A stretch of DNA of 64,000 nt from a bacterium (lineage in GTDB: Bacteria; Patescibacteriota; Microgenomatia; UBA8517), in assembly GCA_030583725.1 (NCBI GenBank), contig CP129472.1, positions 465,902 through 529,901 of the forward strand, in the 5' to 3' direction. The position numbers and the translations under genes are program-made. The first letter of the stretch is position 1. Each line of letters starts with the position of its first letter. The notes under the pieces are model-generated. The model saw nothing but the letters and a program-made list of their open reading frames with translations. It was not told the DNA's origin and did not search any database. Positions 4,555-44,079 of this stretch are shown one piece after another.

Positions 4555-5238
4555 TTAGCTTACCACTCTTGCCCTAACAATTAAACGTTTTGGATTTCTG
4601 GGGTCTCCTGGTGGGGTACAAGTTACCAGTGTTAAAAACGAATCAGAATTGTTTTGTTCTAAAATCTGAATGTCTGTTGGATATATTTCAAACAGTTCTT
4701 CAACTACAAAATCGTATGAAACACCATCAAATTTAACAAAAATCTGATCACCATTTTTTAAAGTAGGAAGTGTTGAGAATATCGCCATATAATTTTTAGG
4801 GTTATAGAAAATTGGTAGAATTGAATGACCGAAAATTACAGCATTGCCGTTTCTACCCGGCAGGGCTGTTCCAGGATACTGTACTAGGTGCTTGGACAAA
4901 TCTTCACCCCCGATTGCGACAATGGCATCTTCTATTTTTAGTTTCGGGATTGTAATTGTGTAAAAATCTACTTTTGACTCCTCAAAATCTTTTGTGTCAG
5001 CCGTAGGAAACCAGGTTGATGCTTTGGTATAGTCGGTGGGTTCTTTTGTTTCATCTTTTTTCTCTAATACTAAAGGGGATAGAAGGGTGGAATAAGATCT
5101 TGCATTGGTCAGTTGATAAACAACAATGGGCCAAATTGAAACAAACAATATAGTAAGCCCAAAAGCGCTTAATCCAAACGACAATAATTTAATAACTTTT
5201 CTTCTGTGACTAAAATTCATTTTTTTAAAGTAAATCAA
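4555..5238 (-). CDS. sortase (membrane-anchored cysteine transpeptidase)
   Basis: N-terminal transmembrane anchor. The TLVTCTP motif matches the sortase catalytic TLxTC signature, with a downstream Arg (RLIVRARV). Its stop abuts the start of the upstream gene (5238/5239). Confidence 0.75.
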   Translation of the reverse strand: MIYFKKMNFSHRRKVIKLLSFGLSAFGLTILFVSIWPIVVYQLTNARSYSTLLSPLVLEKKDETKEPTDYTKASTWFPTADTKDFEESKVDFYTITIPKLKIEDAIVAIGGEDLSKHLVQYPGTALPGRNGNAVIFGHSILPIFYNPKNYMAIFSTLPTLKNGDQIFVKFDGVSYDFVVEELFEIYPTDIQILEQNNSDSFLTLVTCTPPGDPRNPKRLIVRARVVS

Positions 5239-28759: not shown

Positions 28760-28764
28760 CTTGT

Positions 28765-29037
28765 TTAATCAATAAAATTAAATTTTTTCCTAAAACTCTT
28801 TGCATTTTTTTCTATCACTTTTAATTCTTTTTTATCCCACACACCCGCATATTTAGCCATAATTTCAGATCTAGAAGGAGAACTTGTTGCTGGAGCCACC
28901 ACTTTAATAATTTTAATCATGGGTTTACCCATTTTTTCAACAATTATTTCATAATCGTTATAATAAGCGAGGTTCATCAACTCACCAAAATTCTTTCTAG
29001 CCTCATATGCAGATATTGTTTTTAAATTCTTCAACAT
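28765..29037 (-). CDS. Phd/YefM-family antitoxin
   Basis: ISAYEARKNFGELMNLAYYNDYEIIVEK matches the Phd/YefM N-terminal fold. A 5-nt gap separates it from the PIN gene. Confidence 0.6.
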   Translation of the reverse strand: MLKNLKTISAYEARKNFGELMNLAYYNDYEIIVEKMGKPMIKIIKVVAPATSSPSRSEIMAKYAGVWDKKELKVIEKNAKSFRKKFNFID

Positions 29038-29089: not shown

Positions 29090-30796
29090 TTAGGGAGTTA
29101 CTTCATCTGTCATTGCAGTTGAATATTTTTGACCCAAAACCATTCTGCGAAACAGGTTGATAAAAATATCCAGCTCTTTAGACTTCAAAATTTTTAAAGT
29201 TAGGATATAAACAATGGTACCAATTAGTCCTACTATTATGGTTAATATAAGTAAGTTAACTGCGTACCTAGTGTCTAATACAAACCGGTCAAAAGGAAGG
29301 TCAAGGTTCGTTATGAAAGACAACTTCTTAATCCAAACAGACTTATCAAAAAACTTCAAAATAAAATACATTGTAGAACCTGAAACTAACCCACCTATAA
29401 TTGATTTTAAAATTGGCAAATAGAGGGCTGTGTTTAAACCATTGTGAATTCGTCTAGTAATTAAAATGAAGAGAATAACAGATTGAATAATCATAGAAAT
29501 TGAAAAGGCTAAAGCCAAACTCCAAACAGGTAGTTTATAAACTATAACTAGGATGTAATTTAGTAAGATATTAAACAATAAAGTTACGACTGAGACCTTA
29601 ACTGGTGTTCTTGTATCACTCAATGCATAAAAACTTCTGGCCAAGATTGAATTGGCCGCTTGGGAAAAAATGCCAATTGCAAATGCAGAAACCACCAACG
29701 AAGTTTGAACTGTAGCATCCCAAGTAAAAATATCTGTTCCAAAAATCAATCGAACAACAGGAATTCTAGCAACAACCAAAAAAGCAACTATGGGCATCAT
29801 CAAAAACACCACTTGATTTAAAGTTTGATACAGAGTCTTTTTAAAAGCTGGGATGTCATCGGCCTGAGCTGAAAGGGTTGGGAGCGCCGCTTTGGCAATA
29901 GATGTACCAAATAGGCCCACAGGGAGAAGTTGGATTGAATTACCAAATGTAAAATACGTATAAGCAGGGACTGATATTAGAGATGCAAACGTAAGCTCAA
30001 CAAATTTAGCAACCTGCAAAAAAGAGACTTCAATAATTCTCGGTAGTGAAAGTCTGGCAATTTTTTTAACATCGTTTGTGATCTTTAAGCTTCTGCTGAA
30101 CCTAAATCCTAACTTATAGGCAAGTGGTAATTGAATTGAAAAATGCAAAATTGATCCCAAAACTACACCGATTGCTGGTGCATATAGACCATATTTATTT
30201 GAAAAAACCACAGTTGCTATAATTATTCCAAGATTGTAAAAAAGTGGCGCTAAGGCAGGTACAAAAAAACGTTTTGATGATTCTAAAACAGCAGTCAAGA
30301 CATAGGAGATAACAAAAAATCCCTGTGCTATAAATAAAATTCGCGCAAAGTTGGCAATTAAATTTTGGTCATCTGGACTAAAACCTGGAGTTAGCCATTT
30401 ATAAATTAAGGGAGCGAATATAACAACTATCGATGCAAGAGTCAAAAAGATAAGTCCTCCCCAATTAGCAACAACACCGGCAACTCTCCAAGCTCTACTT
30501 TTTGATATTTTTAATGTTTTTGTAAAAACTGGTATAAAAGCTGAAGCAAATGTGCCAAAAACCAAAACTTCAAATATTGTGTCTGGCAACCTAAAAGCTG
30601 CAAAGAACAAGCTCAAGTCTTGAGGCATAAAATAATGAGCCAACACTCTTTGGCGAACCAACCCCAAGAGTCTTGAAACAACAATCATTATCATGATTAA
30701 TGTTGCAGCAGATAAAACAGAGTTCTGTTGCTCAGTAAGCAATGATTTGAATTTATTGAAAAAGGATTTTAATTTTGTTGGGATTGTTAATTTCAT
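29090..30796 (-). CDS. murJ: lipid II flippase MurJ (MviN)
   Basis: 568 aa and polytopic. The N-terminus SRLLGLVRQRVLAHYFMPQDLSLFFAAFRLPDTIFEV is the MurJ signature. Confidence 0.85.
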   Translation of the reverse strand: MKLTIPTKLKSFFNKFKSLLTEQQNSVLSAATLIMIMIVVSRLLGLVRQRVLAHYFMPQDLSLFFAAFRLPDTIFEVLVFGTFASAFIPVFTKTLKISKSRAWRVAGVVANWGGLIFLTLASIVVIFAPLIYKWLTPGFSPDDQNLIANFARILFIAQGFFVISYVLTAVLESSKRFFVPALAPLFYNLGIIIATVVFSNKYGLYAPAIGVVLGSILHFSIQLPLAYKLGFRFSRSLKITNDVKKIARLSLPRIIEVSFLQVAKFVELTFASLISVPAYTYFTFGNSIQLLPVGLFGTSIAKAALPTLSAQADDIPAFKKTLYQTLNQVVFLMMPIVAFLVVARIPVVRLIFGTDIFTWDATVQTSLVVSAFAIGIFSQAANSILARSFYALSDTRTPVKVSVVTLLFNILLNYILVIVYKLPVWSLALAFSISMIIQSVILFILITRRIHNGLNTALYLPILKSIIGGLVSGSTMYFILKFFDKSVWIKKLSFITNLDLPFDRFVLDTRYAVNLLILTIIVGLIGTIVYILTLKILKSKELDIFINLFRRMVLGQKYSTAMTDEVTP

Positions 30797-30821
30797 TTTT
30801 TTTGATTATACTACCCACATG
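30785..30821. promoter_or_regulatory. back-to-back divergent promoters for murJ and rpsT in a 22-bp intergenic gap
   Basis: Plus strand: TTGTTA (30785-30790), a 16-nt spacer, TATACT (30807-30812), then the rpsT ATG at 30819. Minus strand: TATAAT lies 8 nt before the murJ ATG. Confidence 0.4.
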
Positions 30822-31085
30822 CCAGTAACAAAAACAGCCAAAAGAGCTTTGAGGGGTTCAAAGAGGAAAGAAATTGTTAATAAAATTACACTTTCTGGAC
30901 TTGAAATTGCTGTAAAAAAAGCAAAAAAGTCAAAGGATTTAAAGTCAATTCAGAAAGCTACTTCACTTACAGACCGAGCAGCAAAAGAAAACACCATTCA
31001 CAAAAATAAAGCTGGTCGAATTAAGTCACAACTTGCTAAGTTGATGCCAGCAAAACTTCAAACTCTTTCAAAAAAGAACAAATAA
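30819..31085 (+). CDS. rpsT: 30S ribosomal protein S20
   Basis: MPVTKTAKRALRGSKRKEIVNKI... is an S20-type basic N-terminus. Length is 88 aa counted from the internal Met of the track ORF. Confidence 0.8.
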   Translation: MPVTKTAKRALRGSKRKEIVNKITLSGLEIAVKKAKKSKDLKSIQKATSLTDRAAKENTIHKNKAGRIKSQLAKLMPAKLQTLSKKNK

Positions 31086-31100
31086 TGCTAAATTGGGTAT

Positions 31101-31664
31101 ATGCCCATTAATAAGTCCAAAATAATTAATTTACTTCCTAATGATGATTTTCAGAGTACTACTTTTGGTAGGATACTAAAATGGGCGCTGTCCTCGTTCC
31201 GATTTATGGTTATCGTCACTGAACTAATAGTGATGTCTGCATTTTTATCTAGATTTTGGCTAGACGCCAGAAACTCAGACCTGAATGAAGAACTAAATGT
31301 GAGCATGGCTCAAGTCAACGCATACCAAGATGTGGAGCAAGAATTTAGGCTTTATCAAAACCAGCTTCAGGTTGCAAATACTCTATATTTGGATGGAAAA
31401 AACAGTGAATTAATTCAAAAAATTACAAACGTACTTCCAAACGACTTAATTGTTTCATCTATACAACTAACTGGTGAGGACCTCCAAATTAAAGCGGTTT
31501 CTTTTTCAGAACAAGCTGTTGCCCAGTTTTTAGTAAATCTTGAGGGTCTTGAAATATTTGATAAGGTTGAATTATCTCAAGTGGCCTCGAGTATCGAAAA
31601 CAGCTTTGTCACCACGTTCACTATTAGTGCAAAGTACAAACAAAAAACAGGAGGGTTAAACTAA
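31101..31664 (+). CDS. pilN: type IV pilus assembly protein PilN-like
   Basis: The N-terminus INLLP is the PilN hallmark. A single transmembrane segment and a coiled-coil periplasmic domain follow. Confidence 0.65.
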   Translation: MPINKSKIINLLPNDDFQSTTFGRILKWALSSFRFMVIVTELIVMSAFLSRFWLDARNSDLNEELNVSMAQVNAYQDVEQEFRLYQNQLQVANTLYLDGKNSELIQKITNVLPNDLIVSSIQLTGEDLQIKAVSFSEQAVAQFLVNLEGLEIFDKVELSQVASSIENSFVTTFTISAKYKQKTGGLN

Positions 31665-31665
31665 T

Positions 31666-32331
31666 ATGGCACAAGGATGGAGGAGAGACTACTCAAGATA
31701 TAAGGGATTCTTTTTAAATATACTAAATATTTATAAATCCAAACCAACATTGATAGTATATTTGGAAATTATTCTGTCTTTAACAACAATTATAGTGTTT
31801 TCTATCTTTGCCATTAAACCTACGGTTTTGACCATAATTGAACTTAATAACGAAATAGGAAACAAAGAAAGTGTAATTGTCTCTCTAAACCAGAAGATTG
31901 GAAACCTAAAAACAGCATCTTTAGTTTTACAAAACCAGTCCTCAAGATTAAATTTAATTGATCAAGCCGTGCCAAAATCTGCAAACCTTGAAACAGTAAT
32001 TGATCAGGTGGAGAAATTGGCAGCTACCCATCAGGTAGGAATATTAAATATTGCTTCAACAGACTTGTTTCTCTCGGGTGCATCAAGCAAAAAGGCAAAG
32101 GCAGGAGATTTAAAAGCTTTACCTGGTGAAGTGAATGAGCTTAATTTAACAATTTCGGTGACAGGTAGCTATCAAGACCTTTTAAACTTTTTGAAATCTA
32201 TAGAAAACTTAAGACGTCCTATAAAAATAGATACCTTTGTCATCAATGCAACTAACTCATCTGATAGTACTAGGGTTATTGTATTGACACTTACAGGTAG
32301 ATTGCCATTTATCAATCAATCTAAAATATAA
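31666..32331 (+). CDS. pilO: PilO-like pilus assembly protein
   Basis: Bitopic protein with a coiled coil directly after pilN (2-nt gap). The PilO assignment rests on architecture and position. Confidence 0.5.
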   Translation: MAQGWRRDYSRYKGFFLNILNIYKSKPTLIVYLEIILSLTTIIVFSIFAIKPTVLTIIELNNEIGNKESVIVSLNQKIGNLKTASLVLQNQSSRLNLIDQAVPKSANLETVIDQVEKLAATHQVGILNIASTDLFLSGASSKKAKAGDLKALPGEVNELNLTISVTGSYQDLLNFLKSIENLRRPIKIDTFVINATNSSDSTRVIVLTLTGRLPFINQSKI

Positions 32332-32333
32332 AA

Positions 32334-32537
32334 ATGCAAAAAAGTAAATTACCAAGTCTAGTTATATTATTAATACTGACACTAATTACAGTTGTGTTCT
32401 GGATTGTGTTTACTGTTTATAGAACATACATCACAGATGACACCAATGTGAATGTTCCAAGAGAGGTACTACTCCCACTTTCACCAACCCTTAACGAAAG
32501 TACTATTGAAGTTTTGGAATCTAAAATATACCCTTAA
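32334..32537 (+). CDS. small membrane protein with KLPS N-terminal motif
   Basis: 67 aa with an N-terminal hydrophobic helix. The N-terminus MQKSKLPSLVILL resembles that of the next gene (MIKKYKLPTIIGIVVL). Confidence 0.35.
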   Translation: MQKSKLPSLVILLILTLITVVFWIVFTVYRTYITDDTNVNVPREVLLPLSPTLNESTIEVLESKIYP

Positions 32538-32542
32538 AAAGA

Positions 32543-33871
32543 ATGATTAAAAAGTATAAATTACCCACCATAATTGGCATTGTGGTTTTGATTTTTGGAA
32601 TTATTGCTGGAGTTTTTCTAATAAACTCAAGGCAAGTTTTTAAGTTAGGCGCAAACATAGATGCCATTCCTAAAAATGTTAGGTTTACAAACATAACTAA
32701 CTCAAGCTTCACTGTAACTTGGACTACAGATATTGAAAGCACTGGGTTTGTCAAATGGGGAACCAGTGAGCTAACTCTTAGTAAAGTGGCACTTGGCGAA
32801 GGAATTGGAAAAAACTTTGTCCACTCTGCCACAATAATGGGTATAAACCCAAACACAAAAATTTATTTAAAAATAAATTCTAACAGCAATGACTATGACA
32901 ATAATGGTATTCCTTGGCAAGAAACAACAGAAAATATTGTAACAACCTCAGACCAAAATTTAATTGCTTCAGGAAATATTTTAAAACCAGATGCATCAAC
33001 ACCCGCGGTTTCAATTGTTTATTTAACAATTAATGGAATCGTGCTTTCTGCTATTTCATCACAAGGAGGATCATATGTAATACCAATATCAACCTACATA
33101 TCAAACCTACCAGATACCACCCCCATTGAAATATCTGTTCAGGGTGGTCAAAACTCGCTAGCCCAAGCTGTAATTTACCCCAAATATATTAAATCTGTCC
33201 CAACCATTGTACTAGGAAGAACATATGATTTTAGAACTTTGCAAGAGGATATGTCAGGAAACTTACCAGAAAGTAATCTGACCGTTCCTGAGTCTGTAGA
33301 AGTTTCATCAAGATTTGAAGTTACAAAGTCAGAAACTACAAAAACTGTTGATAATGTCCTAGTTGAATCAATTGAAGAAGGGGAAATTATAACAACAGTT
33401 AATCCAGAATTCTTTGGTTCTGGACCAAAAAACACAGAAATTGAAGTAATCGTTGAATCAGAAATGCAATCACAAACAATTACCGTTTCTTCAAATGGAA
33501 GTTGGAAGTGGAGTCCTCCAAATGACCTAGCACCTGGAGAACATAAACTCACTGTTAAATGGAGAGACGCTTCTGGAATTTTAAGAACTATCACAAGAAC
33601 TTTTGTAGTTAGTGCAGCAGAAGGGCCTGCTTTTGAAGCAACACCATCGGCATCCTTAAGTCCTAGTCCAACATCTACAGCTATTGCTACAACTGTTGCA
33701 TCACCTACTGCCAGCTCATCATCAACGCCAATTTCAGCAACACCCACAGCAACACTTCCACCAACACCAGAAACTGGAAGCTTGACAGCTACCATTGGCT
33801 TATTCATAATGGGTATAGGAATACTTTTGTCATCTATTTTTATTTGGAACAAACAATATGCCCAAGGATAA
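32543..33871 (+). CDS. cell-surface protein: N-terminal signal/anchor, FN3-like domain, S/T/P-rich stalk, C-terminal PETG plus transmembrane sorting signal
   Basis: FTVTWTTD, a fibronectin-III-like strand. The C-terminus is ...SPSPTSTAIATTVASPTASSSSTPISATPTATLPPTPETGSLTATIGLFIMGIGILLSSIFIWNKQYAQG: a motif, a hydrophobic helix and a short basic tail. Confidence 0.6.
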   Translation: MIKKYKLPTIIGIVVLIFGIIAGVFLINSRQVFKLGANIDAIPKNVRFTNITNSSFTVTWTTDIESTGFVKWGTSELTLSKVALGEGIGKNFVHSATIMGINPNTKIYLKINSNSNDYDNNGIPWQETTENIVTTSDQNLIASGNILKPDASTPAVSIVYLTINGIVLSAISSQGGSYVIPISTYISNLPDTTPIEISVQGGQNSLAQAVIYPKYIKSVPTIVLGRTYDFRTLQEDMSGNLPESNLTVPESVEVSSRFEVTKSETTKTVDNVLVESIEEGEIITTVNPEFFGSGPKNTEIEVIVESEMQSQTITVSSNGSWKWSPPNDLAPGEHKLTVKWRDASGILRTITRTFVVSAAEGPAFEATPSASLSPSPTSTAIATTVASPTASSSSTPISATPTATLPPTPETGSLTATIGLFIMGIGILLSSIFIWNKQYAQG

Positions 33872-35039
33872 TAATCAAACTCAAAATCCACAGAATAATA
33901 CTGTACCAGTAGCTGATGATATGCCACCAGTAATGATTGAGGATACTTCCCCACCAATGGTTGATACAATTGGACAACCACCGATAAACAACACACCAAC
34001 ACCAACTGCATCTCCTACTACTGACACAGGTTCAGCAGCACCTAGTGATGATATTGTAATGCCATCAGTAGTAACCTCAGGACCAAATGCAAAAGGACCC
34101 TCTAAAAAATTTGGTGGGGGGAAAGTAATTGCAACAATTCTTGGTTTATTCCTCTTAATTGGGGGGGTTGGGGCAGGAACATATCTAGTCCAACAAAATC
34201 AAGATATTAGGGAAAAAGCGTCTTTAGAGTCTGAATATGAAGAGTGTAGAAGAGAAAGTGGAACCCAAGTGTGTAATTGTCGTGTCTACGGAAATTGTAC
34301 CAGACCAGATGCGCACACCGACCCACAAACACCATGGGTAACCGCACCACCTAGTGGGGGCAACACTGAATCCACTTGTCAGTCAAATGGTGGGTATTGG
34401 TGTGATGAAGTTAGTGAATATCCATCGAACAATCTAATACCTGGGTTTTGTAATACATCAGGCCAAACTTGTGGTAATGTTGCTGCCAGTTTAGGTTACA
34501 CAATTAGGATAGGTGAAGGTATGCCTGGCACGTATACTGGAGGATGGTACTGTAGAGTCGGAGTAAATGGATATACTGGAGGACCATGTTTGCAATCCAA
34601 TTCGGTTCCTGGATCATCTCCATACTCACAACCTCCAAATTGTTTCTGTGGAACCATACAGATTGATGGTGGTAATTATGACGGAACATATGTTAGTTCT
34701 TGTGGCTGTGACGACGATAGCGAACCACCAGCAACAACACCTTCAATAACTGCCAAATGCCAAGATGTAAAAGCATATGATGAAAAATGGGCACCATTAA
34801 CATCTGCGCAATTGTCTCAATTAAAAACTGGTGACGATGTTAACTTCTGTGTAACAGGATCTGCAAGTTCTGGATCATTTAATAAAGCTAGATTTACAAT
34901 TAACACTGTTCAACAAGCAGAAACAACAACAATTAGACCAACAAGCCCTGACTATTGCCAAAGTTACACAATTCCTGCTGGAGTTACAACCTTTAATGTG
35001 ACAGCTCAAATAAACCATACGTCATTGGGTTGGAAATAA
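33858..35039 (+). CDS. cysteine-rich extracytoplasmic protein with Pro/Thr-rich N-terminal region and single transmembrane segment
   Basis: 393 aa. The first 90 aa are P/T/N-rich, followed by a transmembrane segment (VIATILGLFLLIGGVGAGTYLV). About 19 Cys are spread over the ectodomain (CNCRVYGNC, CQSNGGYWC, CFCG, CGCDDD...). Confidence 0.55.
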   Translation: MPKDNNQTQNPQNNTVPVADDMPPVMIEDTSPPMVDTIGQPPINNTPTPTASPTTDTGSAAPSDDIVMPSVVTSGPNAKGPSKKFGGGKVIATILGLFLLIGGVGAGTYLVQQNQDIREKASLESEYEECRRESGTQVCNCRVYGNCTRPDAHTDPQTPWVTAPPSGGNTESTCQSNGGYWCDEVSEYPSNNLIPGFCNTSGQTCGNVAASLGYTIRIGEGMPGTYTGGWYCRVGVNGYTGGPCLQSNSVPGSSPYSQPPNCFCGTIQIDGGNYDGTYVSSCGCDDDSEPPATTPSITAKCQDVKAYDEKWAPLTSAQLSQLKTGDDVNFCVTGSASSGSFNKARFTINTVQQAETTTIRPTSPDYCQSYTIPAGVTTFNVTAQINHTSLGWK

Positions 35040-35052
35040 TAGTGATAAATAT

Positions 35053-35643
35053 ATGAAAAATAAATTTACAATGATAGGGATAGTCTTAACAACATTAATC
35101 TTAGCTGGTGTTGCCATATTTACAGCACTTAGACTATATGAAACAAGAGACACAGCTGTTGCACCAAACGTACCATCAAGTAGACCTGCTGCTCAAGTTC
35201 AGCCAACTGAGCAAGCATCAAGTTGTAATTTAAGTTTTACTATCCAAACGTCAACGGCTACACCTACAGCCACTGGGTCAGCAACACCAACTGCAACAGG
35301 ATCAGCAACTCCTACGGCTACTGCAACAGCAACTTCCACAGCAACCGCTACTGCTACAGCTTCACCTGTTCCACTATGTAATAGTAGTTGTACATCAAAC
35401 ACTCAGTGTCCAAGTGGCTTGATGTGTTACATCCCAAGTGGAGCAACAGCTGGAAATTGTAGAAACACTCAATGTCTATCATCAACCAACTGTGTTTGTT
35501 CTACAGTTACAGCCTCACCAAGTACTACTGCTACTACATCCTCAGAACCAACACTTCCAGAAGTTGGTACAACATGGCCAACAATACTTGGTACAGCTGT
35601 TGGAATATTAATCTTAATTGGAAGTTTGCTTCTAGCTTTATAA
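35053..35643 (+). CDS. surface protein: signal/anchor, TPTATGSA tandem repeats, Cys-rich module, C-terminal LPEVG plus hydrophobic helix
   Basis: The C-terminus is ...SEPTLPEVGTTWPTILGTAVGILILIGSLLLAL. There are 10 Cys in CxxxC-type spacing. The T/A/P-rich linker repeats. Confidence 0.55.
   Translation: MKNKFTMIGIVLTTLILAGVAIFTALRLYETRDTAVAPNVPSSRPAAQVQPTEQASSCNLSFTIQTSTATPTATGSATPTATGSATPTATATATSTATATATASPVPLCNSSCTSNTQCPSGLMCYIPSGATAGNCRNTQCLSSTNCVCSTVTASPSTTATTSSEPTLPEVGTTWPTILGTAVGILILIGSLLLAL
35256..35366 (+). repeat. in-frame tandem repeats encoding (TPTATGSA)n / TATA-rich linker
   Basis: acacctacagccactgggtcagca and acaccaactgcaacaggatcagca are repeated, followed by gctactgcaacagca variants. 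Confidence 0.5.
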
Positions 35644-35690: not shown

Positions 35691-38096
35691 TTATCTCCAA
35701 GAGTTAAACCAATAATAACTTTCGTCTAGCCAAACTGGAATTCTTAATCCCGTCCAGTGAGGGTAAAAATAAATAAATAATATAAAACTAACCCCAAAGA
35801 AGTAAGGGATTATTTTGGGATAACGACGAAGAACAAATCCACTAGCGATAGCTAAAAATGGAATCGATGGGAGGTAGTGATATAAAAACATAATCCTAGG
35901 ACTGGCCAGCCAAGGAATAAAAAAAATCAAATAACTAAACACCACAAAACCCAACTTCTTGTTCTTTTCTATATATGAAATTGCAATTGATAAAATTATA
36001 GAAAATAGACCAAACCAAAAAACGATTGGGTTACCCAAGGCATAAATCTTTGCAACCTGGTCATCAATCACCTTTCCGTCATATAAATATAAAGGTCTTA
36101 CAAGTAAGGGCCAAGACCAAGCAGGTGACGTATAAGGGTGCTGGGCTTCAAGATTTGTATGGTACCACCACATTTGCTTTTGGACCTCAATAAATTGTCC
36201 CCAAGTGTGTCCAGTTTTAAACATCAAGCCATAACTTGCTACATAAATTGCCAGTGGAATAACCAAGAAAGAAAGATATGAATAAGAAATTTTCTTTCTA
36301 AACACAAAATGAGAAATAAATATAATTGGTAATGTATAAATAGCTGACCACTTAGAAGCAATTGCCAAACCAAAAACTACTGCTGACATAAAATTCCTAT
36401 TTTTTGCAAAAAGATATACGGACAACAACGAGAAGAACAATACATAGACATCATTCATTCCCATCCTGCTTAGGACTAAAGGCAAGCCTTCTAAACTAAA
36501 CACGCCAGCAGATAAAATACCAACCAGCCTGTCTTTGAAAATTAAGACAGACAATAAATATATTAAATAGATTGATAAAGTCCCCAATACTGCCTGAGGA
36601 ATTCTCCAACCAAAAGAATTTTCACCAAATAACTTCATTCCTAAAGTCATACCTAATTTTGAAAGAGGTGGATGTGTCCATTCATATGCAAATCCCTCGG
36701 GGTGTGGATTCCACCACTCCCAGGCTTTTGGGTCATTATGTAGTACTAATTTTGCCGTAAATGAATGATAAATCTCATCAAAGTACATTTCTTTAATGCT
36801 CCCCAGCGAATATATTCTCGAGGCAAAACTGAAAACTAAAATTATGACAAGTAAAATTTTGGTTTTTTTAACTGATATGTCTGATGTTTCAAACACTTTG
36901 GTAAAACTATTTCTTTTAAAATTAACATTCAAGCTATATTTAAATTTTTTAAAGATTGCGGTGATAGACAATAACAATAGTGAAATGTTGGTGACAATGA
37001 AAAACTTAATTAGAAAGGGATTAAATACTTCTTTAAAGTTTTTTGATATCCACTGAAAAGCATAGTATAAATTGGCAAGATAAGTTACAGACAACCCACC
37101 ATAAACAACAAGTAATATTGGTGCATTTACAGAGGCTACAACTAGGGGAGCAAAAACTGGCAATAAATGTCTTTCGTGAATTCTTGTTAGAAACAAAAAA
37201 GTAATAAGTAGAGAAAGACTCGCAATCAGGTATTCTCCATTTGCAGTTCTCTTTTTATAAACAACCAAGGTAACTAACGTAACCAAAATAATTGACACTC
37301 CCAAACCTATCCATACTGTTATATTATCCGGCCTCCAAAACCCAAAAAGACCCCAAAAAGAAAATGCATTTACTGAACCATATGGATACTGGCCAGATGA
37401 AATAGAGAATCTTTCCAAGATAAAATCAATTAGGTTGGACTTGTTGTTAAATGGTATAAACCCTAAGACAAAAACAGACAACCCCACGACAGAATAGTTA
37501 AGATATTCAACTAGTTTCTTTCTCTGAGTAATGAACAGGTACAAAATGGCGGGTAAAACAAAGGCTGCTTGTGGTTTGACTAAGGTACCCAGTGCTAAAG
37601 CAACTGCAGAGACAAACAGATTTTTTGAAAACATATATATAGCAAAAAGAGAGAATAGCGCAGTTAAACTATCAACTTGACCCCAAAGTGACGAGTTTGC
37701 AAAAACAGCTGGATTAAAAAGATATAGAGCTGATGCCATAAGAGCTATTTTTTTCCCCTTAATTTCATTTACTATTCTGTAGATTAGATAACCTGTTAAA
37801 ACGTCAGAAATAATGGCTGGAAACTTAAAAATAACAATTTGGAGTTCTGGTAAAAATAAATTTATCTTGGCTAGTAAAAACAAAACATAAAGGTAGCCAG
37901 GGAAATAATCGGACCAACTGTTATAAAAGTTTTTAAAACCTGAGTCTGACAAAGAGTTGCCCCAGGCAACAAAAGTTCCATAGTCTAATTCTAGTGTTCC
38001 GAAGTTGGCTAAAAAAATTCTAAAAACTAAAGCAGAAAAAAAGACCATTAAGATGTTAAAATCTAAAGAATGAAAGTAGTTTTTAAGTTTTTGCAT
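35691..38096 (-). CDS. polytopic GT-C glycosyltransferase, apparent fusion of two GT-C modules (C-terminal module PMT/GT39-like with DE motif)
   Basis: 801 aa with more than 20 predicted transmembrane helices. The second module starts near residue 405; YFDEIYH sits just after its first transmembrane segment, as in PMT/ArnT-type enzymes. Confidence 0.65.
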   Translation of the reverse strand: MQKLKNYFHSLDFNILMVFFSALVFRIFLANFGTLELDYGTFVAWGNSLSDSGFKNFYNSWSDYFPGYLYVLFLLAKINLFLPELQIVIFKFPAIISDVLTGYLIYRIVNEIKGKKIALMASALYLFNPAVFANSSLWGQVDSLTALFSLFAIYMFSKNLFVSAVALALGTLVKPQAAFVLPAILYLFITQRKKLVEYLNYSVVGLSVFVLGFIPFNNKSNLIDFILERFSISSGQYPYGSVNAFSFWGLFGFWRPDNITVWIGLGVSIILVTLVTLVVYKKRTANGEYLIASLSLLITFLFLTRIHERHLLPVFAPLVVASVNAPILLVVYGGLSVTYLANLYYAFQWISKNFKEVFNPFLIKFFIVTNISLLLLSITAIFKKFKYSLNVNFKRNSFTKVFETSDISVKKTKILLVIILVFSFASRIYSLGSIKEMYFDEIYHSFTAKLVLHNDPKAWEWWNPHPEGFAYEWTHPPLSKLGMTLGMKLFGENSFGWRIPQAVLGTLSIYLIYLLSVLIFKDRLVGILSAGVFSLEGLPLVLSRMGMNDVYVLFFSLLSVYLFAKNRNFMSAVVFGLAIASKWSAIYTLPIIFISHFVFRKKISYSYLSFLVIPLAIYVASYGLMFKTGHTWGQFIEVQKQMWWYHTNLEAQHPYTSPAWSWPLLVRPLYLYDGKVIDDQVAKIYALGNPIVFWFGLFSIILSIAISYIEKNKKLGFVVFSYLIFFIPWLASPRIMFLYHYLPSIPFLAIASGFVLRRYPKIIPYFFGVSFILFIYFYPHWTGLRIPVWLDESYYWFNSWR

Positions 38097-39233: not shown

Positions 39234-40396
39234 TTATGCGTCATAGAATTAAGTTGATAATATTATTATTAGCAATTGGATTATTTATAATTTATCTTTT
39301 CACCTCAGGAGGGAACACACCATTTAACCACTTTGTGTTATTGGCTGATGCTTTTTTAAAGGGTAACTTTTTTGTTGAGGGCATATACCCTTGGATTGAA
39401 AAAGCACCACTTGATGAGTATAGGTTTTTTATAGTTAATCCACCAATGCCTGCAATTTTACTAATCCCGTTTGTCAAAATATGGAGTTTAAATTTCCCAC
39501 AGCATATTTTTGCACACATAATTGGGGTTTTACTTACTGTTTCCACGTTTTATATGTCGATGATAATTAAAAAAGATTTAAGACTTGCAATTTGGTCAGC
39601 AATATTAATCGGTTTGGGAAGTATTGTCTGGTTTCTTTCAAGCGTTGGATCTGTCTGGTACTTAGGCCAAATAACAATGGCCCTATTTCTAACCTTATTA
39701 ATAAATGAGGCCTTAGTTAAAAAAAGACCTATTGTTATGGGAATCTTGTTGGGATGTGCCTATTTATCAAGAGTTCATTTGATACTAACCTTTCCAATAT
39801 TTGCTTATATACTTTGGCAAAAAAATAAGAGGTTAAATTCAATTTTTTACTTTGGTTTGACTTTTTCATTATTTTTTTTCTTTGACATGTTTTACAACTT
39901 TAGTAGATATGGTTCGTTTTTCAACCAAGGATACTTTTTAATTCCAGGAACTGAAAATGAACCATGGTTTGCAAAAGGCATTATGCATCCAAGTTATATT
40001 TTGGAGGACTTAAAAATAGCGTTTTTGGCAATGCCAAAAGTTATAAGTGAATTCCCATACATTCGTCCTTCGTGGGCAGGTATGGCAATATGGCTTACTA
40101 CTCCAGCCTTTATTTTTGCCTTTGGTGCAAAATGGAAAGATTTAACCACCAAGCTATTTAGCCTAGCGATTCTTTTAATATTTATAGTAGTGGGAATCCA
40201 CGGAGGAACGGGGTTTGCCCAATTTGGATATAGATTTGCAGTAGATTTTTATCCCTTTCTAACCTTTCTAACTATTAAGGGTGTTGCAAATTATGATGGT
40301 CCCAAGAAAATCCACTGGATACTATTGTTCGTGGGTATACTAGTCAATTTTTGGGGAGTTGTTTGGATTAATAAGTTTGGGTGGGTTGGGTGGTAA
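39197..40396 (+). CDS. GT-C-type membrane glycosyltransferase (paralog B)
   Basis: 399 aa and polytopic. FAQFGYRFAVDF parallels the paralog A motif. The first-loop sequence IEKAPLDEYRFFIVNPPMPAILLIPF is similar to FEGRNYIPFPPGASFLLVPF in paralog A. Confidence 0.55.
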   Translation: MGSIMGNSIRLVIMRHRIKLIILLLAIGLFIIYLFTSGGNTPFNHFVLLADAFLKGNFFVEGIYPWIEKAPLDEYRFFIVNPPMPAILLIPFVKIWSLNFPQHIFAHIIGVLLTVSTFYMSMIIKKDLRLAIWSAILIGLGSIVWFLSSVGSVWYLGQITMALFLTLLINEALVKKRPIVMGILLGCAYLSRVHLILTFPIFAYILWQKNKRLNSIFYFGLTFSLFFFFDMFYNFSRYGSFFNQGYFLIPGTENEPWFAKGIMHPSYILEDLKIAFLAMPKVISEFPYIRPSWAGMAIWLTTPAFIFAFGAKWKDLTTKLFSLAILLIFIVVGIHGGTGFAQFGYRFAVDFYPFLTFLTIKGVANYDGPKKIHWILLFVGILVNFWGVVWINKFGWVGW

Positions 40397-41315
40397 CCAG
40401 AAGCTCTTGTTTAAGCCAATTTTGAAACTCTATCCAAGAACCAGATGAGGGCAGAAATACATATTGTCTATCATATCTTCTGTCATCCTGAGAAACAGTA
40501 AACATCTCTTCAGGTATGGATAAGAATTTGACGCTATCCCTTGCATCGTAGACAAATTTTATCAAAGCTATTGACCTATCAAAACTAATGTCGGTTTCAA
40601 GATGAGAGAGAACTGTATTATAGACACCCCGAACAACTTTAAAATCTAAAAATACTTTCCAAGATAACATTTTTTCTTTTATGGCTGATATTACATTTTG
40701 TTGTCTTTTTTCTCTGGCAAGCTCAGATCCCTCATCCAAAACTGCATTTCTACTTCTTACAAACTTTAGGGCAGTTTCACCATCCATAATTTGTTTTCCC
40801 TCAGTAAACTGCACTGTTTCGTATCTGCATGCGTAGGTACGATCTCCGTCACACAAATCATTTTCTTTGCCAGCAATCGGGTACTTTTCATCAACAAAAG
40901 ATTTATCAACATCAACCTCAATTCCACCCACTACGTCTATTAAATCCGTAAAGAGGGTAAAGTCTACGACTAGAAAATTGTCAGGAGTAAAACCCGTAAC
41001 CGACTTGACACTTTCTCCCGCCATTTCAAAACCACCATAGTGATAAGCAGTATTTAGTTTTGCTCTAATTGCAGTTATCCATATGTCTCGAGGTAAAGAC
41101 AAGACACCAACTGATTTATTATCACTATCAAAGTGGACCACCATTATTGTATCTGTCAAGTTGGGTGCAATATGTCCCTCACCTCCTTTACCTAGAATCA
41201 AAATTGTTTGATTGTCTGTTACTTTTGGTAGACTTTTAAAGGTAAAGTATCCAGCAAGGGTAGTTGAAACTACCATAATCAACAGAAATAGGAGAACAAA
41301 TTTAAAGACCCGCAT
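40368..41315 (-). CDS. LytR-CpsA-Psr (LCP) family glycopolymer phosphotransferase
   Basis: N-terminal transmembrane segment. ILILGKGG...DTIMVVHFD....LSLPRDIWI matches the LCP core. Confidence 0.75.
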   Translation of the reverse strand: MRVFKFVLLFLLIMVVSTTLAGYFTFKSLPKVTDNQTILILGKGGEGHIAPNLTDTIMVVHFDSDNKSVGVLSLPRDIWITAIRAKLNTAYHYGGFEMAGESVKSVTGFTPDNFLVVDFTLFTDLIDVVGGIEVDVDKSFVDEKYPIAGKENDLCDGDRTYACRYETVQFTEGKQIMDGETALKFVRSRNAVLDEGSELAREKRQQNVISAIKEKMLSWKVFLDFKVVRGVYNTVLSHLETDISFDRSIALIKFVYDARDSVKFLSIPEEMFTVSQDDRRYDRQYVFLPSSGSWIEFQNWLKQELLVTTQPTQTY

Positions 41316-41353: not shown

Positions 41354-43183
41354 ATGGATAATTTAAATAAACAGCAGATTGAGGCGGTGGAATATGTAAA
41401 CGGTCCACTATTGGTACTTGCTGGCGCAGGTTCAGGAAAGACCAAAGTTTTAACACATAGGGTAATACATTTAATTAACAAAAAACTTGTTAATCCAGAA
41501 AACTGTCTCCTTTTAACTTTTACCAACAAGGCCGCCAAAGAGATGAATGAAAGGATGGGTGATATTAATTTGGGGTTTGCTGGTACTTTTCATGGTTTTA
41601 GTGTTAGGGTTCTCCGAGCTGATGGTAAAGCCATTGGGATTGATCAAAACTTTTTAATATATGATGACAATGACCAAAAGGACTTGATTAAAGATATTGT
41701 TAATAAATTAAATATCAAGGATTCTGTTAAACCTGCTTCTATTCTTTACTCTATAAGTGAAATAAAAAACCAGATGCTTACTCCAAGCAGTTATGCAGAA
41801 ATTGCTGTTGGTGATTTTGGTAGAACAGTTGCAGATGTTTACTTTGAATATGAAAAAAAGTTAAAAGAAATAAATGCATTAGATTTTGATGATTTGTTAA
41901 TAAAAACAGTTTTGCTTTTTGAAGTTCCTGAAGTTATCAATAAGTGGAGAAATAGAATTAAACAAATATTTGTTGATGAATGGCAAGACACCAATAAAAT
42001 ACAGTATAGGCTAATTAGACTGTTGGACGGCAATAGGGGAATTGTTACTGCTGTGGGTGATAGTAGTCAATCGATTTACAGTTGGCGTGGCGCAGATTAT
42101 AGAAACATAAATCTATTAATTAAAGACTATCCCCAGATAAAAGTTGTTAATTTGGAGCAAAACTACCGCAGTACACAAAACATCTTGGAAGCTGCAAATT
42201 CTGTAATATCAAAAAACACCAGTCATCCAATTTTGAAACTTTGGACAGAAAAGGGATTGGGTGAAAAGATATCGATTTACTCCGCAAGGAGCGGTTTTGA
42301 TGAAGCAGAATACCTATCTCGAGAAATTACAAGAACTGTCAAGGTCGGTAAAAACAAATACTTAGACATTGCAGTTTTATATAGAACAAATGCACAATCC
42401 CGTGTCATAGAAGAAGCCTTGTTACATTCTGGAATTCCATACACATTAATCGGCGGTGTAAGGTTCTATGACCGAAAAGAAATTAAGGACATACTTTCAT
42501 ACCTTAGGTTAATTGCCAATCCTAAGGATATAGTTTCTCAAAAAAGAGCTCTGGCATTAGGCAAGCGTAGGTTTGAAAAATTTCAAAGTATTAATGTTGA
42601 TACAGAAACACATACAACTCTTGAAATAATGGATATTATCCTTGCAAAAACTGAGTACTTAACTAAGTTCAAGGAGGTTGACCCAGAAGACGCAGAACGT
42701 TTGGAAAACATAAAGGAGTTTAGATCTGTTGCCATTGAGTTTCCAAATATATATGACTTTTTGGAAAATACAGCCCTAGTCGAAGCTGGCTCAAACAAAA
42801 ATAGTAATAAAAATGCTATTACACTAATGACTCTTCACTCAGCAAAAGGTTTAGAATTTCCAATTGTTTTTATGGTTGGAATGGAAGAAGGATTGTTTCC
42901 TCATTCAAGATCACTTTGGGAAAAAGATCAAATGGAGGAAGAAAGAAGGCTTTGTTATGTTGGAATAACCAGAGCCAAAGAAGTACTATATATGACCTAT
43001 GCCAGTAAACGACTTTTTTACGGTGAAACATCTTCTAACTCACCAAGCAGGTTTTTGTCAGACATACCTGAAGAATTGTTAAATGGTAGAATCGAAACGG
43101 TTGCAGGAAATAGTGATAATGATTCACAAATCAGCGATAATGACCTTAATTTCGATGATATACTAGATAAGTATTTAAAATGA
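41354..43183 (+). CDS. UvrD/PcrA-family ATP-dependent DNA helicase (short)
   Basis: Walker A AGAGSGKTKVLT, motifs DEWQDTN and VGDSSQSIYSWRGA. Length is 609 aa. Confidence 0.85.
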   Translation: MDNLNKQQIEAVEYVNGPLLVLAGAGSGKTKVLTHRVIHLINKKLVNPENCLLLTFTNKAAKEMNERMGDINLGFAGTFHGFSVRVLRADGKAIGIDQNFLIYDDNDQKDLIKDIVNKLNIKDSVKPASILYSISEIKNQMLTPSSYAEIAVGDFGRTVADVYFEYEKKLKEINALDFDDLLIKTVLLFEVPEVINKWRNRIKQIFVDEWQDTNKIQYRLIRLLDGNRGIVTAVGDSSQSIYSWRGADYRNINLLIKDYPQIKVVNLEQNYRSTQNILEAANSVISKNTSHPILKLWTEKGLGEKISIYSARSGFDEAEYLSREITRTVKVGKNKYLDIAVLYRTNAQSRVIEEALLHSGIPYTLIGGVRFYDRKEIKDILSYLRLIANPKDIVSQKRALALGKRRFEKFQSINVDTETHTTLEIMDIILAKTEYLTKFKEVDPEDAERLENIKEFRSVAIEFPNIYDFLENTALVEAGSNKNSNKNAITLMTLHSAKGLEFPIVFMVGMEEGLFPHSRSLWEKDQMEEERRLCYVGITRAKEVLYMTYASKRLFYGETSSNSPSRFLSDIPEELLNGRIETVAGNSDNDSQISDNDLNFDDILDKYLK

Positions 43184-44079
43184 TGGACAAGCATCCACTA
43201 CAAACCAGAGAATGGGGAGAGTTTAGGAGAGAGTGGGGGAATATTGTTGAATTTTCAAAAGCTGGACTTATTATATTTAGTAAAATTCCACACACCAATT
43301 ACACAATTGGAACATTAATACGAGGAGAAAAACCCACAAAGACAGACTTGGACACAATTCAAAAAGAATCAGAAAAGCATAATGCCATCTTTGTAAAACT
43401 TGAGCCAAATGTGTTATGGGAAAAGAAACTAGAAAGCAGTTTTCGGGAGTGGGGACTTGTTCAAGGTAAAACACTATTTACCCCAACTTCTTTTTGGATA
43501 GATCTAAAATTAAGTGAAGATGAACTATTGAAGTCATTTACAAGTAAAACTAGGTATAACATAAGGTTGGCACAAAGATATGGCATAGAAGTCAAAATAG
43601 ACAACAGTGACGAGGCTTTTGAAAAATATTTAAAATTGACAGAAGAAACAAACAAAAGACAAGGATTTTACTCACACACACCAAAATATCACAAGCTAAT
43701 GTGGAAGCACTTAAAGAGAAGTGTTGCAAACTTAATGACTGCAACATACAACAACGAGATAGTTTCTACCTGGATTTTGTTTAACAACAAGGACTTCCTT
43801 TACTATCCATATGGGGCTTCAACTAATAAATACAAAGAGATTATGGCCAATAATCTAATGATGTGGGAGGCAATAAGGTTTGGTAAAGTCAAAGGTTTAA
43901 AAACGTTTGACTTGTGGGGCAGGGAAATTGGTACAGGCTTTACTAGATTTAAGGAAGGATATAACCCAAAAGTTGTTGAGTTTGTTGGTAGTTGGGACTT
44001 GGTGGTTAATAGACCAGTATATTTCCTATATAGAATCCTTGAAAAAATTAGATGGTTTATACTTCGCCTTAAAAAATGA
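43180..44079 (+). CDS. FemAB-family peptidyl-transferase (peptidoglycan interpeptide bridge formation), half-size
   Basis: N-terminus ...TREWGEFRREWG, and the FemAB-like central region YNIRLAQRYGIEV. 4-nt overlap with the neighbouring gene. Confidence 0.6.
   Translation: MMDKHPLQTREWGEFRREWGNIVEFSKAGLIIFSKIPHTNYTIGTLIRGEKPTKTDLDTIQKESEKHNAIFVKLEPNVLWEKKLESSFREWGLVQGKTLFTPTSFWIDLKLSEDELLKSFTSKTRYNIRLAQRYGIEVKIDNSDEAFEKYLKLTEETNKRQGFYSHTPKYHKLMWKHLKRSVANLMTATYNNEIVSTWILFNNKDFLYYPYGASTNKYKEIMANNLMMWEAIRFGKVKGLKTFDLWGREIGTGFTRFKEGYNPKVVEFVGSWDLVVNRPVYFLYRILEKIRWFILRLKK

Follow-up and report, generated by a model that had tools for sequence, protein, structure and literature searches.

P1 and P3, the first and last of three consecutive envelope proteins encoded in a 64-kb window of a CPR bacterial genome (the whole stretch of DNA analysed here), are probably exported proteins that carry lineage-specific cell-wall sorting signals at their C-termini, where a sortase would cleave them. 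Both C-termini have the anatomy of a sortase signal, are strongly selected and modular, and grade into canonical LPxTG. They represent two distinct signal subtypes, and the absence of a basic tail is an invariant feature of the P3 family. Most likely, the signals are specific to this lineage and are missed by current LPXTG models. The open reading frames of P1, P2, and P3 are present on the + strand at the coordinates given in a preliminary description of this DNA (Table 1). The analysis covered the 64-kb window and loci of relatives extending 10 kb to either side.

Table 1. Features of the window relevant to the P1–P2–P3 locus.
Feature	Position	Strand	Evidence and remarks
Membrane-anchored sortase	4555..5238	-	TIGR01076, 55.7 bits (cutoff 39.35); probable ATG start at 5220
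MurJ lipid II flippase	29090..30796	-	Pfam MurJ; conserved neighbour; context peptidoglycan synthesis
rpsT (ribosomal protein S20)	30819..31085	+	Gene call and Pfam Ribosomal_S20p; opens the + strand block
PilN homolog	31101..31664	+	Pfam PilN, E 5.5e-12, 46 bits (cutoff 22.8); N-terminal INLLP motif
PilO/GspM-like homolog	31666..32331	+	Pfam PilO, E 6e-7, 30.1 bits (cutoff 22); T2SSM_b
orf67	32334..32537	+	Conserved 67-aa single-pass membrane protein
P1	32543-33871	+	442 aa
P1-type signal	33764..33868	+	T408-P-E-T-G412, then S-L-T-A-T, helix, tail WNKQYAQG
P2	33858-35039	+	393 aa
P3	35053-35643	+	196 aa
P3-type signal	35554..35640	+	L168-P-E-V-G172, then T-T-W-P-T, 19 hydrophobic residues, stop
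PMT-type (protein O-mannosyltransferase-like) membrane glycosyltransferase	35691..38096	-	Pfam PMT_2, PMT_4TMC, PMT, GT87; convergent with P3
LytR-CpsA-Psr (LCP) family protein	40368..41315	-	Pfam, E 1.9e-36; conserved neighbour
FemAB-family peptidyltransferase	43180..44079	+	Pfam FemAB, E 1.5e-25

In P1, an N-terminal anchor (residues 7–30) is followed by three β-sandwich domains in a row, i.e., an FN3-like domain (residues 44–128), a second β-sandwich (residues 141–230), and an Ig-like Big_13 domain (residues 281–356), after which a disordered Thr/Ser/Pro stalk (residues 363–404) leads into the C-terminal sorting signal. The FN3-like domain anticipated in the preliminary description is recovered by Pfam (Pur_ac_phosph_N/fn3, residues 43–128), as is Big_13 (residues 281–351), and the protein contains no cysteine. 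The AlphaFold2 model (mean pLDDT 80) predicts the C-terminal helix at residues 414–441. Foldseek matched the model to FN3 and Ig-type adhesin tandems, generic folds that do no more than suggest that P1 may be an adhesin. An identity as a PilP/PilQ-like or pilin-like protein was rejected, given that Foldseek returned generic FN3/Ig tandems only. P1 was likewise rejected as a sortase-assembled pilin, i.e., a class C substrate with a YPKN lysine, since the lysine in AVIYPKYIK (residues 209–217) is not conserved among 118 homologs.

The C-terminus of P1 reads TLPPTPETGSLTATIGLFIMGIGILLSSIFIWNKQYAQG. Searches returned 294 homologs, and among the 120 listed (46–100% identity), 114 keep the consensus [T/V/L]-P-E-[T/S]-G-S-L-T-P-T followed by a helix and Lys/Arg. 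The proline and glycine of the pentapeptide are invariant in these 114 sequences, position 1 is Thr in 79, Val in 20, and Leu in 13 (including LPE[T/S]G and LPD[T/S]G), and position 4 is Thr in 103, Ser in 10, and Ala in one. The glycine is followed by 27–32 residues, with one to three Lys/Arg among the last ten in every case. Conservation along the protein is highest in the motif block, with a mean majority-residue fraction of 0.84 compared with 0.45 for the stalk just ahead of it. Distant homologs include canonical LPxTG, and distant orthologs can lose the proline at position 2 (LIDAG, ATDSG) while retaining G...PT.

P3 is built from a highly conserved N-terminal anchor (MKNK..IGI.L.T.ILAGVAIFTA.RLY), a Thr/Ala-rich linker, a module with eight cysteines (the whole protein has nine), and the tail-less sorting signal, ending in TLPEVGTTWPTILGTAVGILILIGSLLLAL and a stop codon. 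The consensus L-P-x-[V/S/A]-G-T-x-W-P-T is kept in 118 of 120 P3 homologs, where the leucine and proline are invariant and position 4 is Val (52), Ser (35), or Ala (31), and never Thr. The distance from the glycine to the C-terminus is exactly 24 residues in all 118, none of which has Lys or Arg among its last ten residues; the missing basic tail pointed out earlier for P3 is thus a family-wide property and not the oddity of one gene.

A profile of the P3-type tag, searched at a threshold of E ≤ 1e-3, matched 155 clusters among 1.84 billion (1.84e9) cluster representatives, almost all of them at the extreme C-terminus; metagenomes were scanned for the tag with a DNA pattern. The 138 tail-less carriers have no charged residue within the last 12 positions, and their pentapeptides are LPxAG (56), LPxSG (46), IPxTG (13), LPxTG (7), VPxTG (6), IPxSG (4), and LPxVG (3), with Thr at position 4 next to a tail-less helix in 26 of the 138. 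The passengers are unrelated to one another, and include cohesin, FN3, Ig-like, and Sdr-like proteins (the last represented by P0373). An FN3 protein (P0319, locus L031) carries the tail-less tag, has a true signal peptide, and is encoded in a genomic context without pilN/pilO. Tagged cohesin proteins stand last in clusters of cohesin or cohesin/dockerin genes (loci L033 and L034), again without pilN/pilO. One P1 ortholog, P0332 (40% identity over 350 residues), has the P3-type tag in place of the P1-type tag, and the two tags therefore look interchangeable. In another protein, P0346, the P3-type motif is combined with a Lys-containing tail.

Common to the P1- and P3-type signals are the proline at position 2, the glycine at position 5, and a Pro-Thr pair four residues past the glycine, which gives the core [L/T/V/I]-P-x-[T/S/A/V]-G followed by x-x-[W/T]-P-T. 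The motif PE[T/V]G put forward in the preliminary description does not hold as this shared core, as the glutamate is conserved in the P1-type signal only. The arrangement of stalk, non-LPXTG motif, and C-terminal helix was on the other hand recognized correctly in both proteins, and the motifs are retained in their homologs as detailed above. Within each family, conservation peaks at the tag. Among the real genes in the window, only those of P1 and P3 encode an xPxxG ahead of a hydrophobic helix at the C-terminus, and in both proteins the hydrophobic segment adjoins the motif and lies at the very end of the chain. Both proteins also have N-terminal hydrophobic export/anchor segments and passengers of extracytoplasmic type (FN3/Ig domains, Cys-rich modules). 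They are therefore not cytosolic tail-anchored proteins. The anchor models TIGR01167 and PF00746 do not match P1 or P3 at E ≤ 1. When P1, P2, P3, and the tag carriers were scanned with NCBIfam and Pfam, no sorting-signal model rose above its cutoff and no NCBIfam CTERM model matched. A relative with LPVTG (P0321) reaches 9 bits with TIGR01167, whose cutoff is 15.9.

The middle protein, P2, is Cys-rich as described previously, with 17 cysteines. It consists of a Pro-rich N-terminal part, a TM anchor at approximately residues 88–110, a hypervariable Cys-rich middle, and a conserved C-terminal domain of about 95 residues that ends in HxxLGWK. A C-terminal sorting signal is absent from P2, relatives in sequence were not found in Pfam or the PDB, and comparison with P3 gave no significant similarity.

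The preliminary description placed a sortase in the same window, and the TIGR01076 score confirms this. The enzyme has a sortase fold and an intact triad, with the histidine in FGHS, the cysteine in LVTC, and the arginine in LIVRAR. Tested against the NCBIfam models for classes A–F, it falls below every class cutoff, the class E model giving 43.8 bits where 160 are required. The gene belongs to the housekeeping operon alaS-orf687-srt-ruvX-mltG and lies 28 kb away from the trio, so that there is no local genetic link between them, and no sortase is located within 10 kb on either side of the trio in 24 related genomes. Orthologs of the sortase are 65–81% identical, and they match clusters of P1 and/or P3 orthologs in the length of the longest contig (264764, 330360, 744514, 141760, 235213, 263349, and others), which implies that the contigs are shared. 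In a related metagenome locus (L053), a different sortase abuts a protein with LAATG and a basic tail, with a tail-less IPSTG protein nearby. At least one related lineage has a second type of sortase, and several sortases may exist. Sortase is reported to be nearly ubiquitous in Microgenomates and is among the few envelope enzymes reported to be enriched in CPR (PMC6744442). The searchable literature yielded no description of substrates for the Microgenomates sortase.

Immediately upstream of the trio lie the tightly packed genes rpsT, pilN, pilO, and orf67, in agreement with the earlier placement of the trio downstream of pilN/pilO, and the P1 and P2 genes overlap by 14 nt. The synteny of pilN is kept in 24 related loci, and the gene order with pilN, pilO, and orf67 is strict; in loci L003–L026, rpsT precedes pilN. 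By tblastn, orf67 is found in 19 of the 24 loci at 40–55% identity, and the slot between pilO and P1 holds short ORFs in at least three other loci. The PMT-type gene adjoins P3 in most loci. Genes for wall synthesis within the window are those for MurJ, FemAB, LCP, and MltG. LCP proteins attach wall glycopolymers, and FemAB enzymes make the peptidoglycan cross-bridge that is the usual sortase acceptor. In scans of the operon, promoters were as numerous as in shuffled sequence, and terminator-like sites modestly exceeded the shuffle level, but seven of eight are on the opposite strand and none marks the operon end. Two polytopic proteins downstream (38070–40396) weakly resemble GT-C-type glycosyltransferases and were on this ground rejected as alternative sorting enzymes (exosortases). 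No exosortase/archaeosortase, rhomboid, or CPBP protease was found in the fully Pfam-annotated window, and the tags could not be assigned to exosortase/archaeosortase or rhombosortase signals, for which a PEP, PGF, or GlyGly motif and a matching polytopic enzyme would be expected.

For the reading that we favour, the following sequence of events can be proposed. P1 and P3 would first be exported in a Sec-dependent manner, whereupon the C-terminal helix would retain them in the membrane. The housekeeping sortase would then cut between position 4 and the glycine, i.e., at T|G in TPETG of P1 and at V|G in LPEVG of P3, and pass the protein on to the presumed acceptor, the lipid II cross-bridge that FemAB-type enzymes produce, resulting in a covalent bond to peptidoglycan. 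Such a sortase would have to accept two flavours of signal, a "classical" P1 type with xPETG, helix, and Lys/Arg tail, and the tail-less P3 type with LPx[V/S/A]G-TxWPT and 19 further residues. The adjacent PMT-type transferase probably adds O-linked glycans to the Thr/Ser/Pro-rich stalks, and P2 may be kept in the membrane by its N-terminus.

An unlikely alternative is that the two proteins meet different fates, with P1 being a normal sortase substrate and the tail-less domain of P3 being served by a second, dedicated sortase or an unrelated enzyme, possibly for anchoring to a lipid or glycopolymer. The discrete features of the P3 family, namely Val, Ser, or Ala and never Thr at position 4, 24 uncharged residues after the glycine, and the invariant TxWPT, are typical of a dedicated pair of signal and enzyme; related lineages hold more than one type of sortase (L053), and of the roughly 840 kb of the contig, 64 kb were inspected for enzymes. 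On the other hand, neither the window nor the conserved neighbourhood contains an alternative sorting enzyme, and the carriers with Thr at position 4 of a tail-less signal, the P3-type tag on the P1 ortholog P0332, and the Lys-containing tail of P0346 indicate that the features assort independently and hence do not define two closed systems.

It is distinctly improbable that processing does not take place at all, such that the C-terminal helices are permanent second anchors and Px.G...PT serves as a helix cap or a contact site in a membrane complex with PilN, PilO, and orf67. In P1 and P3, the N-terminal anchors belong to the most strongly conserved regions, which fits permanent membrane proteins as well as cleaved precursors, and the strict gene order with the bitopic PilN, PilO, and orf67, the absence of a charged tail in P3, and the better conservation of G...PT than of LP in distant orthologs are all in line with such an arrangement. 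It is difficult to reconcile, however, with the occurrence of the tag on proteins that have cleavable-looking signal peptides and in contexts without pilN/pilO (P0319 and the cohesins described above), with the grading of the pentapeptide into canonical LPxTG, and with the presence of a conserved sortase that has no other evident substrates in view. Thr/Ser/Pro-rich stalks make P..G strings not rare, and the signals could in principle be ordinary hydrophobic C-termini located by coincidence behind a low-complexity stalk containing Pro and Gly. The likelihood of such a chance resemblance is negligible, as it is refuted by the near invariance of the motif in more than 230 homologs with a variable stalk, and by the specificity of the tag profile, whose few matches end at the C-terminus.

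As for the pilus, genes for PilM, PilB, PilC, PilT, or a pilin are absent from the window, leaving pilN-pilO an orphan pair, and a possible pilus association of the trio is suggested only by the conserved gene order with this pair. The operon with pilN-pilO suggests that P1–P2–P3 form or decorate an envelope complex at a type IV pilus platform. A far-reaching and quite unlikely extension is that tail-less [L/I/V]-P-x-[A/S/T/V]-G-T-x-W-P-T-x19-COOH is a Microgenomates-specific signal with primed-side recognition and a C-terminal "ruler", and that pilN-pilO-orf67-P1-P2-P3 encode a glycosylated complex, held in the membrane through conserved N-terminal anchors and attached to the wall by sortase, that replaces PilP/PilQ in CPR cells lacking an outer membrane and links the type IV pilus platform to the wall.

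A life attached to other cells is presumed for CPR/Patescibacteria, and to our knowledge hardly anything has been established about the construction and decoration of their envelope. The strongly conserved LPXTG variants suggest how uncultured, ultra-small Woesebacteria-type CPR cells fix proteins to the wall. With searchable signal definitions, a list of the wall-anchored surface proteome can be drawn up, including FN3/Ig stalk proteins and cohesin scaffoldins, and the definitions explain why standard LPXTG models miss these proteins. If the proposal is correct, a natural sortase that takes Thr, Ser, Ala, or Val at position 4 and does not require a charged tail would be of interest as well to protein engineers working with sortase as a ligase.

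The closest known counterpart is the LPXTG signal with the class A housekeeping sortase of Firmicutes (TIGR01167/PF00746), with which the present system shares the stalk, the pentapeptide with Pro2 and Gly5, the helix, and in P1 the basic tail, as well as a membrane-anchored Cys transpeptidase with a His-Cys-Arg triad and FemAB-type enzymes in the same genome. It differs in that position 1 is mostly Thr or Val in P1 and position 4 Val, Ser, or Ala in P3, in the x-x-[W/T]-P-T past the glycine, in the uncharged end of P3 at a fixed 24 residues, and in that the LPXTG anchor model stays below its cutoff and the sortase below the cutoff of every class A–F model. In classical sorting, a charged tail is needed for retention, and we know of no sortase signal with a fixed 24-residue length or a primed-side TxWPT. 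Compared with the class E sortase and LAXTG signal, a housekeeping system of Actinobacteria, the present signals deviate at positions 1 and 4 and not at position 2, and the LAATG signal of L053 occurs beside the different sortase. Ala and Ser at position 4, as in the P3 family, are natural in staphylococcal surface proteins (LPXAG and LPXSG; PMC7137321). There they are rare exceptions in an LPXTG repertoire, whereas Ala, Ser, and Val are the rule in the P3 family and Val is commonest. As far as is known, the staphylococcal LPXAG/LPXSG proteins keep the charged tail.

The PGF-CTERM/archaeosortase and PEP-CTERM/exosortase systems are similar in having a short C-terminal motif and helix, Thr-rich (glycosylated) linkers, lineage specificity, and modularity, but their motifs are PGF and PEP and their enzymes are polytopic, with none in the window. 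PGF-CTERM and PEP-CTERM signals normally have basic residues at their end. A model for the haloarchaeal ArtA-dependent S-layer glycoprotein also gave weak, spurious matches in its tail part. Finally, sortase-anchored cohesin scaffoldins (Ruminococcus ScaE) and glycosylated LPXTG proteins (Actinomyces oris GspA with LCP) are known. The former resemble the tagged cohesin proteins that close cohesin or cohesin/dockerin clusters, and the latter are reminiscent of the PMT-type and LCP genes flanking the trio. Unlike ScaE and GspA, the proteins described here belong to CPR bacteria with minimal genomes.

Two of the three consecutive envelope proteins P1, P2 and P3 carry a C-terminal tag, i.e., a pentapeptide followed by a hydrophobic helix, and these tags are real, conserved, and of two kinds. 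In agreement with the preliminary description, P1 ends in TLPPTPETG, a helix and then WNKQYAQG, and P3 in TLPEVG, 24 residues and the stop. PE[T/V]G, which was proposed there as the motif, is not the right consensus, since what the two types have in common is Pro-2 and Gly-5, together with a Pro-Thr pair placed four residues beyond the glycine. The P1-type tag is present in 114 of the 120 P1 homologs listed (of 294; 46–100% identity), with T (79), V (20) or L (13) at position 1, invariant P and G, E at position 3 in 98 sequences, and T (103), S (10) or A (1) at position 4. The glycine is followed by [S/N]-L-T-P-T-[L/I]-G, with 27–32 residues to the C-terminus and one to three K/R among the last ten. 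No other stretch of P1 is as conserved as this block, whose mean majority fraction is 0.84 vs 0.45 in the stalk. The P3-type tag, found in 118 of 120 P3 homologs, has an invariant L-P, a variable position 3, and V (52), S (35) or A (31), never T, at position 4, and continues with G, T (107), x, W (109), P (116), and T (115). The distance from the glycine to the C-terminus is exactly 24 residues throughout, and a terminal K/R is absent.

The tail-less tag is a modular signal and is not confined to a single family. Searching 1.84 billion cluster representatives with a 33-position profile of this tag (E ≤ 1e-3) gave 155 proteins, in which the match almost always extends to the C-terminal residue. 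The P3-type N-terminal anchor is found in 71 of these, and the remaining ones have other N-termini and passengers. The variant motif thus has many carriers at the lineage level, which speaks against its being absent from other secreted proteins, a possibility considered in the preliminary description. Among the carriers are P0319 and P0321, with true signal peptides and LPVTG, the former with an FN3-like domain and an unrelated gene neighbourhood; the Sdr-like protein P0373; a large family with the N-terminus MP.Q..SPFEI.T..KSKK and [I/V]P[E/V]TG; and P0332, a P1 ortholog where LPDAG and a tail-less helix replace the P1-type tag. The pentapeptides of 138 tail-less carriers are mainly LPxAG (56) and LPxSG (46), followed by IPxTG (13), LPxTG (7), VPxTG (6), IPxSG (4), and LPxVG (3); 24 residues follow the glycine in 134 of the 138, and the last 12 residues are uncharged in all of the 138. 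Based on these tallies, T at position 4 and a charged tail assort independently, and the motifs grade without a break into canonical LPxTG. A degenerate DNA pattern for [L/I/V]PxTG-TxWPT-x17-A-x-stop retrieved 39 metagenome stretches, 38 of which are ends of open reading frames of the tail-less-tag kind. A tagged cohesin protein is also encoded by the last gene of a cohesin-only cluster (L033, 9459–10654; LPDAG) and of a cohesin and dockerin cluster (L034, 7909–11041; LPVTG), which suggests that CPR-like genomes encode wall-anchored scaffolds resembling cellulosomes.

The AlphaFold2 model of P1 (118 homologs, mean pLDDT 80) consists of an N-terminal helix (residues 7–30), three β-sandwich domains (44–128, 141–230, and 281–356), a disordered T/S/P stalk (363–404), and a C-terminal helix (414–441). 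The FN3-like domain noted earlier is present, as is a Big_13 domain, and Foldseek returned only generic FN3/Ig tandems of the kind found in adhesins and matrix proteins. The segment AVIYPKYIK (residues 209–217, window 33167–33193) resembles YPKN, the pilin motif known from sortase-polymerised pili, but was rejected because the lysine is not conserved among the 118 homologs. P2, which is Cys-rich as described (17 Cys), starts with a Pro-rich part, followed by a single TM segment (consensus IATILGLFLLVGGxGAGVxLVQQNQDIREKA), a Cys-rich, hypervariable middle, and a conserved C-terminal domain of ~95 residues; it lacks a C-terminal tag, and no sequence relative was found in Pfam or PDB. In P3, a very conserved N-terminal anchor is followed by a T/A-rich linker, an 8-Cys module, and the tag. 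The passenger in this family ranges from ~140 to >400 residues, and several Cys modules, or the C-terminal domain of P2, occur in some members. In relatives of P2 and P3, the Cys modules have the pattern C..NQDC..G..C.N..C (P3 residues ~105–150; P2 ortholog at L017 8261–9895), one ortholog matches the Pfam Dumpy DPY module (E 3.8e-11), and the modules look like small disulfide-knot repeats shuffled between the two families. At the opposite end, the anchor MKN..K..T.IIL..T.ILAGVAIFTA.RLYQ.R is the best-conserved part of the P3 family. Otherwise unrelated tag-bearing proteins also have a common N-terminal membrane motif, G(G)xxAG[V/I]xL[V/I]xQxQ(D/N)I, seen in P1 (32543–32640), P2 (about 34120–34200), P0279, P0301, P0314, P0316, P0320, P0337, P0358, and others, and this may represent a type of signal or anchor particular to the lineage and paired with the C-terminal tag.

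Features of the tagged-protein block, the sortase locus and their surroundings in the window
Feature	Position	Strand	Remark
Sortase	4555–5238	-	passes the generic sortase model
687-aa membrane protein	5239–7302	-	overlaps alaS end, abuts sortase start
PIN-domain protein (132 aa) and 90-aa protein	28361–29037	-	between hrcA-grpE-dnaK block and murJ
rpsT	30819–31085	+
pilN	31101–31664	+	N-terminal INLLP motif kept
pilO	31666–32331	+
orf67	32334–32537	+	single-pass membrane protein, 67 aa
P1	32543–33871	+	442 aa
P2	33858–35039	+	393 aa; 14-nt overlap with P1
P3	35053–35643	+	196 aa
PMT-type enzyme	35691–38096	-	protein O-mannosyltransferase-like, fused to GT87-like N-terminal part
Two paralogous polytopic proteins	38070–39233, 39197–40396	+	weak LA_3751/3752 putative glycosyltransferase matches
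LCP protein	40368–41315	-

The nearest relatives of P1 carry the names Candidatus Woesebacteria or Microgenomates, and the window belongs to a CPR genome of this type. Seven genes, from rpsT to P3, follow each other almost without spacers, and the order murJ / rpsT-pilN-pilO-orf67-P1-P2-P3 / PMT-type glycosyltransferase / two GT-C-like membrane proteins / LCP / uvrD / FemAB is conserved in most of 24 Woesebacteria loci and persists to ~40% P1 identity. The surroundings of the trio are a wall-biogenesis and glycosylation setting, in which FemAB supplies the acceptor chemistry expected for a sortase. The PMT-type enzyme, the two polytopic paralogues and the LCP protein are neighbours of the trio in most of these loci, suggesting that the T/S/P stalks are glycosylated, with the PMT-type enzyme as a plausible candidate for this role. 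The pilN and pilO genes share an operon with rpsT and the trio and are separate from the rest of the type IV pilus genes, and no pilM, pilB, pilC, pilT or pilin gene is found in the 64-kb window. The INLLP motif of PilN binds PilM, and since it is retained here, PilM must be encoded elsewhere. Between the hrcA-grpE-dnaK block and murJ, the PIN-domain protein and its 90-aa neighbour look like a toxin-antitoxin pair.

The sortase gene of the preliminary description is present as annotated. The protein failed every class model (bits/cutoff: C 60.7/160, SrtD 45.8/140, E 43.8/160, D 40.1/165, F 27.8/166). An N-terminal TM helix is present, as are the motifs FGHS, LVTC, and LIVRAR; H132, C201, and R218 do not vary among 120 orthologs, in which R216 is conserved to at least 90%. 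With 65–81% identity between orthologs, the sortase is more conserved than its presumed substrates. Longest contigs of identical size (264764, 330360, 744514, 141760, 235213, 263349, 69936, 78736, 69172, 61264, 745626, and 43490) recur in clusters of sortase orthologs and of P1 and/or P3 orthologs, which implies that these genes share contigs. The neighbourhood (alaS, 687-aa membrane protein, sortase, ruvX, mltG, rpoB) is of housekeeping type and conserved. The 687-aa protein consists of a cytoplasmic half that is acidic, a single TM segment, and an extracellular half in which a weak Baseplate_J-like match was found; this gene arrangement is retained at L032 (3989–6004), beside a 70%-identical sortase ortholog, and the protein may be a sortase partner.

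Both tags are, in our view, probably lineage-specific forms of a sortase signal. The case is safer for P1, which has the full tripartite architecture, than for P3, given the latter's lack of a tail, its fixed length, and the absence of T at position 4. Chance resemblance is excluded. That the tail-less domain is instead served by a second enzyme or pathway is unlikely, but gains some weight from locus L053, where a 252-aa secreted protein terminating in LAATG, a TM segment and KKSSVR is overlapped at its end by a different, unclassified sortase of 194 residues that is weakly class-D-like (both within 3081–4383, minus strand), and where a tail-less member of the SPFEI family with IPSTG (6927–7568, minus strand) lies 2.5 kb from the LAATG gene and 3.3 kb from the sortase. 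The 64-kb window encodes no exosortase/archaeosortase, rhomboid or CPBP protease.

The C-terminal helices could also be permanent anchors inside a PilN/PilO-associated membrane complex, which we regard as very unlikely. The related suggestion that they behave as ordinary tail anchors is improbable because P1 and P3 each have an export or anchor segment at the N-terminus as well as extracytoplasmic domains. A distinct ruler-type sorting signal combined with a wall-tethered, pilus-associated complex is quite unlikely. Returning to the sortase-signal reading, neither the definition of two types (xPETG-SLTPT plus tail, and tail-less LPx[V/S/A]G-TxWPT whose end has a rigid length of 24 residues) nor a conserved pilN-pilO-linked operon was found described in NCBIfam, Pfam or the searchable literature. 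Sortases in CPR are already known, and Méheust et al. (2019) report a sortase family that is near ubiquitous in Microgenomates as well as a CPR-enriched MdbA-like disulfide oxidoreductase (PMC6744442), the latter of which fits the Cys-rich ectodomains. For A and S at position 4, staphylococci provide precedents (PMC7137321).
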